A stretch of DNA of 64,000 nucleotides from Patescibacteria group bacterium (GCA_022703645.1 JAKLDG010000001.1:733254-797253); one strand, 5' to 3'; positions 27,185 through 62,213 are shown, numbered from the stretch's first letter. The notes: generated by a model not told the origin, from the letters alone. Made by a program: numbers and translations.

Positions 27185-27370
27185 AAATTCTCCTTTCTAA
27201 TAAAAAACACCGCAAAAATATGCGGTATTTAATACTAAGATTATTATTGCTAAATTTTATATTACATTTTTGTAACATGATCCTTGGTCGGTTTTTATAT
27301 TTTTTAGTGGAAAACACAAAGCTCCCCACCAGCGATGGCTTGCGCCACCCACACCCCTTTCGAGGCATGA

Positions 27371-27420
27371 CCGACCAAGGTGCTCTGATGGAGAGCTTTC
27401 TACCTTGGTCGGATTTTTTG
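27371..27420 (+). terminator. Strong intrinsic terminator: 11-bp stem ccgaccaaggt/accttggtcgg with nested 5-bp hairpin, followed by TTTTTT
   Basis: Perfect inverted repeat plus T-run on the plus strand. The preceding ~80 nt are GC-rich. Confidence 0.65.
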
Positions 27421-27561
27421 CCATATCCTACAGATGTAATGCAGGGGTTAGGCAACTAAATTGTTAGCATCATTTTAGCATGCAAAACCGTTAAAGTAAA
27501 GCTATTAATCCCCGTATCGACTCACATTTATATACATCACAAATCAGGGATTAACAACAAT

Positions 27562-36827: not shown

Positions 36828-36906
36828 TTTGAAAACGAGATCTGTTTCAGGTAACGGTTACATTGACCCATCCCCGGTAGTTAAAACTACAGAGTAAAGA
36901 GCTCGA

Positions 36907-37193
36907 CTCAGGGGGTGGGGGTCGAACCCACAACCTATCGGTTACACTTAATCCCTAGCTTTCGCTAAAGCGTGGACTATATCTTTGCCGTGTTCTAAAA
37001 ATAGAATTTAGGCATCTCGGTATCTAGTCTCTACGGCGCTCTCCGCCAAAGCGGAGTTCCCACGGTATTAGCATGCCCACCCAAGGCGGGTTTAGCCTTC
37101 ACCGTTATCCCGAGAAGTTCACCTCGCTGTTTCCAACGAGGGCTGCGTTTTATGTTTTCACAGCCGATTGCTCCACCATTGAGCTACCCCTGA
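36907..37193 (-). tRNA. tRNA-Asn(GUU) interrupted by a 215-nt group I intron in the anticodon loop (after U35)
   Basis: Exons reconstruct the cloverleaf: acceptor TCAGGGG/CCCCTGA, D-arm GCTC-AATGGTG-GAGC, anticodon arm ATCGG-CTGT^TAA-CCGAT, T-arm GTGGG-TTCGACC-CCCAC, discriminator G. Confidence 0.8.
36945..37159 (-). ncRNA. Group I self-splicing intron
   Basis: P1: exon GGCUGU pairs with the intron guide sequence GCAGCC, with a U-G pair at the 5' splice site. R element AGAGACUAGA and S element AAGAUAUAGUCC form P7. Terminal G precedes the 3' exon. Confidence 0.75.
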
Positions 37194-37285: not shown

Positions 37286-37357
37286 GTCAGAGGGTGGGGG
37301 TCGAACCCACAACCTACCGGTTAACAGCCGGTTGCTCCACCATTGAGCTACCTCTGA
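37286..37357 (-). tRNA. tRNA-Asn(GUU), intron-less copy
   Basis: TCAGAGG-TA-GCTC-AATGGTG-GAGC-A-ACCGG-CTGTTAA-CCGGT-AGGTT-GTGGG-TTCGACC-CCCAC-CCTCTGA-C. Confidence 0.85.
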
Positions 37358-37386
37358 GTTTGGTACATTATCTGTAATATTATACC

Positions 37387-38517
37387 TTATTTTAAATATT
37401 CTTTCAACTTCTTACTTTCGCGGTTTCTTCTAAGTTTGAGAAGCGCCTTTGCTTCAATCTGACGAATACGCTCACGGGTAACACCAAATTCACGCCCCAC
37501 TTCTTCCAAAGTATGGCTCTTACCATCTTCCAAACCAAACCTCATCTTTAGAATTTTTTGTTCTCTTGGGTAGAGTGATTTTATAACTCCGCGTAATTGT
37601 TCACGAAGCAATTGATGCGTTGCCGCTTCATCCGGTGCAATATTTTTATCATCTGGAACAAAATCTGAAAGGTGCGAATCTTCTTCTTCGCCGACAGTAG
37701 TTTCAAGTGAAATTGTACCTTGAGAAATTTTTAAAACATGTTGAACTTTTTCTATTTCCATATTCATTTCAGCTGCAATTTCCTCTGGTGTCGGATCACG
37801 CTGTAATTCCTGCGAAAGCTGCCTTTGGACTCGATTTAGTTTATTAATCGTTTCAACCATATGCACCGGAATACGAATTGTGCGAGCCTGATCCGCAATA
37901 GAGCGCGTAATCGCTTGGCGAATCCACCAAGTCGCGTAAGTTGAAAATTTATAACCACGCTTGTAATCAAATTTCTCTACTGCTTTCATTAAACCAAAAT
38001 TTCCTTCTTGAATTAGATCAAGAAGAGGAAGACCGCGACCGACAAATTTCTTTGCAATTGAAACAACCAAACGAAGGTTTGCTTCAATCAATCTTTCTTT
38101 TGCTCTTTCATCGCCCTTCTCTACTTTTTTTGCTAACTCAATTTCATCCTCCGTTGTTAAAAGTTGAATGCGGCCGATTTCACGCAAGTACATACGAACA
38201 GAGTCGGTAGAAATATCAGCGAGTGTCGCTTCCTGCTTTTTTATTTCTTCCAAGATATTTTCTTCACTAAGCCTTTCATCATCAAGGCTTTCTTCGTCCC
38301 CACTCTCCATTACTTCAATACCCTCTTCCAACATAATGGAATAAATTTCATCAAATTTTTCTACATCACCTTCAGCATCAGGGATAACACTCAAAATATC
38401 ATCTTGAGTTAAAAAACCTTGCCCTTTTCCTTTCTCTATCAAAGCCTCAATCTCGGGGTTTACTTTTTCTTTTTTCTTTTGCTGAGAGTTATCACTAACT
38501 ATTTTCTTTTTGACCAT
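37387..38517 (-). CDS. rpoD: RNA polymerase sigma factor RpoD (sigma-70)
   Basis: Regions 2-4 conserved: [54 protein letters not shown]. Confidence 0.9.
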
Positions 38518-38543: not shown

Positions 38544-40325
38544 TTAAATTAAACTTTGTAGTTCGCGTAAAAGTTTTTTTATTTTTTCTTTATCCTTTAC
38601 TTTATCTATTTGTGCAAGTTCCAATTCTATTTCTCTTTGTCTTTTCTCTTTCTTATTTTTTAACACATCTCTTATTAAAAGATCAATATCTAAAGTAATA
38701 TCTTTCTCATCTACTCCATCAAAAAAACTTAGAGCCAAAAAGAAAAGCAAATCAAAGTCAACCTGCTCTTCTCGGCTTAGTTTCATTTTGTTTTTTATGT
38801 ATTGAAAGTCAATTTCTTCACGTAATTTCGCACCCTTATTTTGCCACTCATTTAGAATATTGTAAAGCTTTTTACTATTTTCTTCCTCTAAATCTTCTGC
38901 TTTAACCTTATTAAAGAAATCGCTAATTTTTTTTGGATAAAGAGTTAAAAAAATTAACAATAATAATTCTTTTGATATTTTTAGTTTTACGGAACTATCC
39001 CCCTGTTTTGTCTCCACCTTCCTTTGTGTTTCACCTGCAACTTTTATTTTATCAAGAGCATCAATAATAAATTTTTCATTCACATTCATATCTGAACTAA
39101 TTTTTTTTATCCAATGTGCTTTTTCAACATCATTTGCAATACTTCTTATAATTGGGAGAAATTCTTTTGAAATGTTTTTCTTATCTTCTGTACTTTTAGC
39201 ACCATTATTTTGTTTCAGTAAACTATTATAATAAAAATCCAAAATAGGAACGGGTGATTTGCTAATTTTTATCCATTCGTTTTTATCTTTTTGAATTAAT
39301 TCATCCGGATCTTTTGCTCCTTCTATAACTATAGCTTTAATATTAATATCCTCAAATTTTGTTAGTTCAAAAGCTCTTTTTGTCGCCAAAAGCCCCGCTT
39401 CATCTGTATCAAAAGCAAAAGCAATATTTTTTGTATAACGTGATAATATTCTTACTTGTTCACTAGTTAATGCGGTACCAGAAGAAGCAACCACATTCTT
39501 GACGCCCGCTTGATGCGAAGAAATTACGTCCATATATCCCTCAACAATAATAACAAGATCACTTTCGCGGATTGTATCCTTTGCCTCATAAAGCCCGTAT
39601 ACGATTGAGCTTTTATCATAAAGATCGCTCTGCGGAGAATTGAGATACTTTGGAGGGGTAAAACGCTCATCTTTTGGAGCTTTAAAAATCCTGCCACCAA
39701 AACCAACCGTCTTTCCCTGAGTATTACGTATTGGAAAAATAATTCTTTCACGAAATTTATCAGTTACTTTGCCATATGAGTTTTTTGTGATCAGCCCCAT
39801 CTTCATCAACTCTTCCTGCTTATATCCTTTCTTTACTAAAAAATCATTAAGCAGTAGTGGACCAGTTGGTGCATAACCCAAGGAAAATTCCTTTAAAGTT
39901 ATTAGTGAAAGTTTTCTTTTTTCGGTTAAATACTGCTTTGCCTCTAATCCAGCATTGTGTTCATTTAAAATATAAGAGAAAAAATTTTGCGCCATTTCAA
40001 CCATCTGGAAATTCCGATCTTTAACGCCTTTGTTTTCAAATCTAGTTTTTTCTAACACTACTCCCGCTCTATCGGCAAGCAGATTTAATGCTGCAGGAAA
40101 ATCTAATCCTTCGATCTTTTCGATAAAGGAGATAACATCACCACCTTGATTGCACCCAAAACAATACCAAATCTGCTTTTCACCACTTACCATGAAAGAT
40201 GCTGTTTTTTCTTTGTGAAAAGGACAGCAAGCGCGGTAATTTCTGCCGGCTTTTTTCAAAGTTAAATATGACGAGATCAGATCCACCACATCAACTCTCT
40301 TTTTTACCTCATCAACTTGATCCAT
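38544..40325 (-). CDS. dnaG: DNA primase DnaG
   Basis: Zinc-binding CCPFHKEKTASF...CFGC and TOPRIM motifs (IIVEGYMD, DTDEAG). Confidence 0.9.
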   Translation of the reverse strand: MDQVDEVKKRVDVVDLISSYLTLKKAGRNYRACCPFHKEKTASFMVSGEKQIWYCFGCNQGGDVISFIEKIEGLDFPAALNLLADRAGVVLEKTRFENKGVKDRNFQMVEMAQNFFSYILNEHNAGLEAKQYLTEKRKLSLITLKEFSLGYAPTGPLLLNDFLVKKGYKQEELMKMGLITKNSYGKVTDKFRERIIFPIRNTQGKTVGFGGRIFKAPKDERFTPPKYLNSPQSDLYDKSSIVYGLYEAKDTIRESDLVIIVEGYMDVISSHQAGVKNVVASSGTALTSEQVRILSRYTKNIAFAFDTDEAGLLATKRAFELTKFEDINIKAIVIEGAKDPDELIQKDKNEWIKISKSPVPILDFYYNSLLKQNNGAKSTEDKKNISKEFLPIIRSIANDVEKAHWIKKISSDMNVNEKFIIDALDKIKVAGETQRKVETKQGDSSVKLKISKELLLLIFLTLYPKKISDFFNKVKAEDLEEENSKKLYNILNEWQNKGAKLREEIDFQYIKNKMKLSREEQVDFDLLFFLALSFFDGVDEKDITLDIDLLIRDVLKNKKEKRQREIELELAQIDKVKDKEKIKKLLRELQSLI

Positions 40326-61366: not shown

Positions 61367-61439
61367 GCGCGTGTAGCTCAGTGGTTAGAGCACCACCCTT
61401 ATAAGGTGGGGGTCGATGGTTCAAGTCCATCCACGCGCA
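61367..61439 (+). tRNA. tRNA-Ile(UAU)
   Basis: GCGCGTG-TA-GCTC-AGTGGTTA-GAGC-A-CCACC-CTTATAA-GGTGG-GGGTC-GATGG-TTCAAGT-CCATC-CACGCGC-A; anticodon TAT. Confidence 0.8.
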
Positions 61440-62052: not shown

Positions 62053-62126
<74 letters not shown>

Positions 62127-62129
62127 TTT

Positions 62130-62203
62130 GGCTGGGTAGCTCAGTTGGTTAGAGCGCAGGACTCATAAGCCTGAGGTCGTGAGTTCGATTCTCACCCCAG
62201 CTA
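62130..62203 (+). tRNA. tRNA-Met(CAU), elongator type (an Ile2/lysidine CAU tRNA is not formally excluded)
   Basis: GGCTGGG-TA-GCTC-AGTTGGTTA-GAGC, CTCATAA loop and T-arm GTGAG-TTCGATT-CTCAC. Resembles the E. coli elongator Met D-arm. Confidence 0.75.
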
Positions 62204-62213
62204 CTTAGTAAAA

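Follow-up and report, generated by a model that had tools for sequence, protein, structure and literature searches.

The window, by which we mean the whole 64,000-nucleotide stretch that was analysed, carries two tRNA-Asn(GUU) genes in tandem on its minus strand, just 3' of the end of rpoD. The RpoD protein is 100% identical to one named 'Patescibacteria group bacterium', and its next relatives are labelled Patescibacteria or Microgenomates. The features of the locus are as follows, in the order of transcription.

38544..40325, minus strand: dnaG, which precedes rpoD
37387..38517, minus strand: rpoD
37379..37407, minus strand: promoter-like site (TTGAAA, 17-nt spacer, TATAAT; 11 of 12 consensus matches), overlapping the end of rpoD and upstream of both tRNA genes
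37357..37286, minus strand: tRNA-Asn(GUU) copy 1, intron-less, found by ARAGORN and by Rfam tRNA (68.3 bits), with a perfect cloverleaf and discriminator C73
37246..37293, minus strand: 13-bp hairpin of copy 1, in which CCUCUGACAGGGA pairs with UCCCUGUCAGGGG, its 5' arm made up of that gene's 3' acceptor strand and C73
37194..37207, minus strand: leader arm GUAGAGAGUUCGAC, which can form a 14-bp helix with the trailer
37193..36907, minus strand: tRNA-Asn(GUU) copy 2, the split gene, starting 92 nt after copy 1
37193..37160, minus strand: 5' exon of copy 2, TCAGGGGTAGCTCAATGGTGGAGCAATCGGCTGT, tRNA positions 1-35, ending in GGCUGU
37159..36945, minus strand: 215-nt insert of copy 2, after U35
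36944..36907, minus strand: 3' exon of copy 2, tRNA positions 36-73, TAACCGAT...CCCCTGAG (UAACCGAU...CCCCUGAG), with G73 and no encoded CCA
36894..36907, minus strand: trailer arm GUCGAGCUCUUUAC, starting at G73

Joined together, the exons of copy 2 make a 72-nt tRNA that ARAGORN identifies as tRNA-Asn(gtt) and that is identical to copy 1 at 67 positions. The five differences are two compensatory pairs, 5-68 in the acceptor stem and 27-43 in the anticodon stem, and the discriminator, which is C in copy 1 and G in copy 2. An earlier note on this DNA had described two near-identical minus-strand tRNA-Asn genes lying 92 nt apart, and its coordinates are exact. The break after U35 and the 215-nt insert at 36945..37159 that it reported are likewise correct, but the split copy, which it called the upstream one, is the downstream copy along the direction of transcription. 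The site overlapping the end of rpoD probably serves both genes as a promoter, judging by its match to the consensus; a -10-like box following the rpoD stop is also seen in relatives, and no terminator-like site was found between copy 1 and copy 2.

The insert is a group I intron, and the signal for this lies far beyond chance. In a local search of 601 nt it matched the Rfam model RF00028 (Intron_gpI) over its full length, model positions 1-253, with 35.7 bits and an E-value of 1.8e-7. As this score is below the gathering score of 50, an Rfam scan of the whole window at the gathering threshold does not report the intron, and the homologous intron of a close relative (locus L001) went unreported in a 19-kb scan even at an E-value of 0.01. 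Williams (2020; bioRxiv 10.1101/2020.01.27.920355) worked with cut-offs of 18-20 bits and pointed out that no bacterial introns are in the seed of the model. A fold built by hand (P1, P2, P3, P4, P5/5a, P6/6a, P7, P8/8a and P9) accommodates the P3/P7 pseudoknot, and all 64 of its pairs in the window intron are standard, so that two of the checks proposed in the earlier note, the covariance-model search and the manual folding, came out in favor of its reading. The elements of the intron are given here by their position in the window.

37159..36945, minus strand: group I intron, 215 nt, no ORF; G1 at 37159 and omega-G215 at 36945
37141..37146, minus strand: internal guide sequence GCAGCC (intron positions 14-19), pairing with exon GGCUGU (37165..37160) to form P1
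37123..37140, minus strand: P2 hairpin CUCGUUG GAAA CAGCGAG, with a GAAA tetraloop; 7 of 7 pairs show both-side changes
37110..37115, minus strand: P3 5' strand UCUCGG, pairing with 37020..37015; 6 pairs, 100% paired in 11 sequences, 4 compensatory
37035..37105, minus strand: P4-P5-P5a-P6-P6a domain (intron positions 55-125); P4 is 96% paired, and P5a and P6a vary with compensation
37025..37031, minus strand: P7 5' strand GAGACUA, with bulged A130, pairing with 36979..36974 (UAGUCC); invariant in 11 of 11
37015..37020, minus strand: P3 3' strand CCGAGA, directly after J7/3
36986..37014, minus strand: P8/P8a hairpin with a UAAA/CAC internal loop; its helices are 100% and 97% paired, and 8 of 9 pairs are compensatory
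36974..36985, minus strand: J8/7 and P7 3' strand (the 'S' element), AAGAUA UAGUCC, placed by the Rfam alignment and by covariation
36953..36970, minus strand: P9 hairpin CUUUAGC GAAA GCUAGGG, with a GAAA tetraloop; 5 of 7 pairs compensatory

When 11 homologous introns are aligned, 91.8% of the pair cells of this model are paired, as against 33-43% when the partners are slid by 1-3 columns, and in 37 of the 66 pairs both partners have changed; none of 500 shuffles reached the observed covariation by any measure. The minimum free energy (MFE) fold recovers the same helices as the hand-built model; its z-score is -5.0 when the gene is folded by itself and -7.5 when the flanks are included. U35 forms a wobble pair with G14 at the 5' splice site, and neither this U.G pair nor the next three pairs below vary in any of the 11 homologues; the pairing of GGCUGU with GCAGCC and the U.G at the junction are thus present as the earlier note had them. 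The same is true of the R-like AGAGACUAGA and S-like AAGAUAUAGUCC elements that form P7 and of the terminal G: the P7 arrangement is that of the Rfam consensus AGACUA/UAGUC, and the omega-G, G215, is the last base of the intron and is kept in all homologues. By analogy, G131-C185 is the predicted guanosine-binding pair of P7. As the 3' strand of P3 directly follows J7/3, the window intron lacks P7.1/P7.2 hairpins, which sets it apart from the majority class of tRNA-Asn introns; extra hairpins of this sort are also a feature of typical IA introns. On direct inspection the 3' exon and the P1 loop offered no convincing P10, a single pair at most.

To the earlier note tRNA-Asn(GUU) looked like a new insertion site, and here it was mistaken: the claim fails because both the site and the type of intron were published in 2020 and again in 2026. 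According to Williams (2020), the four classical settings of bacterial tRNA introns (Leu, fMet, Arg and Ile2) had been expanded to 21, and the Asn 35/36 setting was given the name 'Asn.4Ug' there, as cited by Nakagawa et al. (mSystems 2026; PMC13011429). The latter authors found 15 tRNA-Asn(GUU) introns at 35/36 in 95 complete Patescibacteria genomes, showed precise self-splicing at 35/36 in vitro, with a sequenced junction, for one of them (GCA_016700035.1), and reported HNH genes in four. The tRNA-Asn(GUU) 35/36 site is the commonest setting for tRNA introns in Patescibacteria, and the window intron is a genuine and well-preserved further example of this published kind. With insertion site, host tRNA, phylum and splicing chemistry all published, it carries little weight as a discovery. 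Taking fold, host and family together, we hold it to be highly probable that a functional Patescibacteria tRNA-Asn(GUU) gene is interrupted between U35 and U36 by a group I intron that probably splices itself out, and that this intron is a member of the family already published for tRNA-Asn 35/36.

The published introns share with that of the window the host gene, the anticodon, the insertion point CUGU|UAA and the phylum, as well as the U-1/omega-G boundaries and the core elements GUAGAGACUAGA and GAUAUAGUCC. One of the genomes in Table S3 of Nakagawa et al., GCA_030583765.1, has a homologue of the window intron's own compact class, 205 nt long, colinear with it at 65% global identity and identical in its R and S elements. 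Most published tRNA-Asn introns, including the one from GCA_016700035.1 that was spliced in vitro, belong to another structural class with extra P7.1/P7.2-like hairpins after P7; the window intron, which has none, is one of a compact minority. A further difference lies in its surroundings, for the window has an intron-less tRNA-Asn(GUU) adjoining the split gene, whereas Nakagawa et al. found that split and intron-less genes with the same anticodon rarely coexist within one genome.

How widespread such genes are was seen from a scan of GTDB species representatives with the pattern GATATAGTC, N15-45, GTAA, N13, GGTTCRA, NN, C. It matched at least 120 loci, almost all of them, among the matches listed, in metagenome-assembled genomes (MAGs) of Patescibacteria, and a script reconstructed at least 91 further tRNA-Asn(GUU) genes split after U35 among the matches listed. 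These 91, again among the matches listed, all have U-1, omega-G and G73, and their introns, which fall into two size groups, measure 194 to 723 nt. The majority class among the matches listed has hairpins right after P7 (GGTTCAGAGACTA TCCCGAAAGGGA ...), and the compact class, with P3' straight after P7, accounts for about 14 of 92 reconstructed split genes, the window gene and L001 included. An intron-less tRNA-Asn(GUU) adjoining the split gene was found at none of the 120 loci among the matches listed. A few split tRNA-Asn loci among the matches listed come from MAGs labelled Omnitrophota, Gammaproteobacteria, Elusimicrobia, Planctomycetales and Oligoflexia.

The compact form also resembles the IC3 introns of cyanobacterial tRNA-Arg(CCU) and tRNA-Leu(UAA) and of Azoarcus tRNA-Ile. 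Both kinds sit in the tRNA anticodon loop and are of similar size (about 200-250 nt), and, from inspection against the IC3 sequences of Table S5 in PMC13011429, they share the order P1, P2 with a GAAA loop, P3, P4-P6 without P5abc, P7, P3', P8, P9 and omega-G, with a CCUAAA-type internal loop in P8, a GAAA loop on P9 and no P7.1/P7.2. The IC3 introns differ from that of the window in host tRNA and in insertion position. The covariance-model classification of Nakagawa et al. puts nearly all of their introns in IA and no Patescibacteria tRNA intron in IC. With nhmmer, the window intron scores 20.7 bits over its full length against an IA-type Asn profile and 3 bits against an IC3 profile, the two profiles being of unequal depth (36 and 7 sequences). 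The result leans away from IC3, the subgroup whose models the earlier note had named, and an IC3 affiliation of the window intron is not established.

For a comparison at the same locus we took relatives with a tRNA-Asn downstream of rpoD and an RpoD identity of 77-86%, together with four loci found with a pattern for the rpoD 3' end. A homologous intron interrupts the rpoD-linked tRNA-Asn in L001, L133, L134 and L137, whereas the gene is intron-less in L002, L003/L007/L008/L135, L009, L010, L132, L138 and L139. Such patchy presence at one locus among close relatives implies past gain or loss of the intron. Its identity to the window intron is 81% in L001, 78% in L133 and 76% in L134. In L134 the split gene is the only rpoD-linked tRNA-Asn; its exons match those of the window at 100% identity, and the substitutions between the two introns cluster in helices and are compensated. 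From identical exons and introns that have diverged while keeping their fold, it follows that the exons are under selection and that the intron evolves within the constraints of its fold and is polymorphic in its presence. The locus therefore offers a clean natural series for the study of intron gain and loss, close relatives having the tRNA-Asn in split and in intron-less form, and it includes the window tandem, which pairs an intron-less with a split form, the L139 tandem (GCA_964424445.1, 3340-3571), an independent MAG in which both copies are intron-less, and relatives with an endonuclease inside or beside the intron.

The exons would be joined by established group I chemistry, which, together with the published in vitro splicing of a homologue, is our reason for proposing the following route. 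Transcription of both tRNA-Asn genes would start from the promoter-like sequence that overlaps rpoD, and the intron would fold into the P1-P9 structure with the P3/P7 pseudoknot, the part of the route that covariation supports. The GCAGCC guide, paired with exon GGCUGU, would mark the 5' splice site by the U35.G14 wobble, and free guanosine bound at P7 G131-C185 would attack there. G215 would then take the place of the guanosine and the 3'-OH of U35 would attack the 3' splice site, giving the anticodon loop CUGUUAA; RNase P, 3' trimming and CCA addition would presumably complete the tRNA. Splicing of the window intron is thus probable by analogy with its homologue, and, with an intron-less tRNA-Asn(GUU) next door, it is not demonstrably essential at this locus.

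That neighbor is also the first thing to be said for the strongest of the other readings, in which the split gene is a dead pseudo-tRNA whose intron no longer splices and the intron-less copy, a perfect cloverleaf only 92 nt upstream, supplies all the tRNA-Asn. The intron has no endonuclease gene, its Rfam score is under the gathering threshold, and no P10 pairing can be drawn, all of which also speaks for it. Against it, all helices and invariant core positions are intact when set against the 10 homologues, the exons match without a single difference those of the sole rpoD-linked tRNA-Asn of L134, and the differences from copy 1 are compensatory. It is rather copy 1 that looks like the decaying partner. 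The split copy has G73, as do all 92 reconstructed split genes among the matches listed and the single intron-less relatives that were read, while copy 1 has the odd C73 and its 3' end lies in a hairpin; in L139, moreover, copy 1 again has C73 and only 4 of 7 acceptor pairs, which makes it look the weaker gene. A dead split gene therefore appears very unlikely to us, and we retain the reading of a functional tRNA-Asn gene with an intron that probably splices.

The pairing of an intron-less with a split gene might also be a chimera, the haplotypes of two strains having been joined during assembly. Other metagenome assemblies contain three contigs (L004, L005 and L006) that match the window at 100% identity and share one end point, 37385, 2 nt past rpoD, which suggests strain variation or a branch in the assembly graph just upstream of the tRNA genes; when metagenomes were scanned with the rpoD 3' end, four loci came up, none of them the window's own haplotype. 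Against a chimera, the 92-nt spacer is unique sequence without significant similarity to tRNA, and the independent MAG of L139 has the same tandem at 80% identity, with the C73 hairpin of copy 1 and a kindred leader/trailer helix. From these shared features we conclude that the tandem is real and older than the intron polymorphism. A chimera, which we judge very unlikely, would in any case bear on the tandem only and not on the intron.

The exact place of the intron in the gene deserves comment because standard tools mislead here. ARAGORN in default mode and Rfam tRNA both miss the split gene, and in its intron mode (-i) ARAGORN calls it a tRNA-Thr(TGT) with an intron at 33/34, as it also does in L137. 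We place the intron at 35/36 because the U.G pair falls at U35, because the intron-less gene of L132, which is nearly identical to the joined exons of the window, reads GTT, and because copy 2 of L139 is uninterrupted and presents the empty site exactly as CTGT|TAAC, L139 being colinear with the window minus 36945..37159 at 198 of 246 positions (80%). A tRNA-Thr(UGU) carrying the same 215-nt insert shifted by two bases has the ARAGORN -i call behind it and would likewise place a U just ahead of the intron and make G the last intron base, but it is improbable in the extreme, since its splice-site U would fall in a U-A pair of P1 where the conserved wobble is at U35 in 11 of 11, since the tRNA body is so close to the adjacent tRNA-Asn and the intron-less counterparts in L132 and L139 both read GTT, and since the Thr(UGU) 33/34 call is a documented miscall shared by the published Patescibacteria introns, for which the 35/36 junction was confirmed by sequencing the spliced product of a homologue (PMC13011429). 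For the tRNA-Asn gene split at 35/36, as for others of its kind, the practical consequence is that tRNA complements and completeness estimates of Patescibacteria can be wrong where standard tools miss or miscall split genes, as Nakagawa et al. warn.

Endonuclease genes accompany the intron in other lineages. Among the matches listed, roughly 30 long Asn introns (437-723 nt) contain an HNH gene. In L001 a free-standing ORF of 101 amino acids (L001:4211-4516) lies between rpoD and the tRNA gene and matches Pfam PF01844 with 25.5 bits, above the cut-off; in L041, L077, L039 and L105, as in L001, an HNH gene stands just outside the split tRNA-Asn and is of the same family as those inside introns. 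In phage systems, intron insertion sites are known targets of free-standing homing endonucleases, an arrangement termed collaborative homing. The relatives resemble these in having an HNH gene just outside an intron-containing tRNA-Asn, where it may play a homing role; the window differs from them, with no HNH gene of the Asn-intron family found anywhere in its 64 kb.

Two further structures belong to the tandem. The hairpin of copy 1 folds with -36.8 kcal/mol (z -2.8), and there is a homologous one in L139 and a shorter one in L003. The leader and trailer of copy 2, found by a repeat search and in the MFE fold, form a 14-bp helix (12 Watson-Crick and 2 G.U pairs) that extends the acceptor stem to 21 bp. 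Helices of this kind but of unrelated sequence occur in L043 (15 bp), L060 (13), L039 (10), L057 (12 of 14) and copy 2 of L139 (14 of 15), and 4 of 91 other split genes among the matches listed have one. As the sequences elsewhere are unrelated, we favor a role at the RNA level over mobile-cassette repeats. The arms were also considered as inverted repeats at the ends of a mobile cassette carrying the split gene, for which no target-site duplication was seen. A 14-nt resemblance to the T arm raised the further possibility that a remnant tRNA half, the scar of an integration, lies in the 92-nt spacer or the downstream flank, but local alignment against both tRNAs is at chance level, about 200 of 500 shuffles scoring as high. 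Both ideas were set aside.

With the tandem unit shared by two lineages, those of the window and of L139, it is tempting to regard it as a conserved unit of two parts, in which the C73 copy would act as a processing or regulatory element or as a poorly charged decoy beside a helix-clamped working tRNA-Asn, the intron having entered copy 2 by HNH-driven homing. We offer this as speculation that is more likely wrong than right by a wide measure; if it were true, the 21-bp helix could keep the two exons in contact while splicing takes place, or steer endonucleolytic release.

Elsewhere in the window, a LOOT RNA motif (RF03000), a structured RNA of unknown function, lies at 27334-27454 on the minus strand; its 98.5 bits are well above the gathering score of 46.4. 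A tRNA-Ile with the anticodon TAT, which is uncommon in bacteria, is found at 61367-61439 on the plus strand (77 bits), and two tRNA-Met(CAT) genes come after it in tandem, one at 62053-62126 and the other at 62130-62204.
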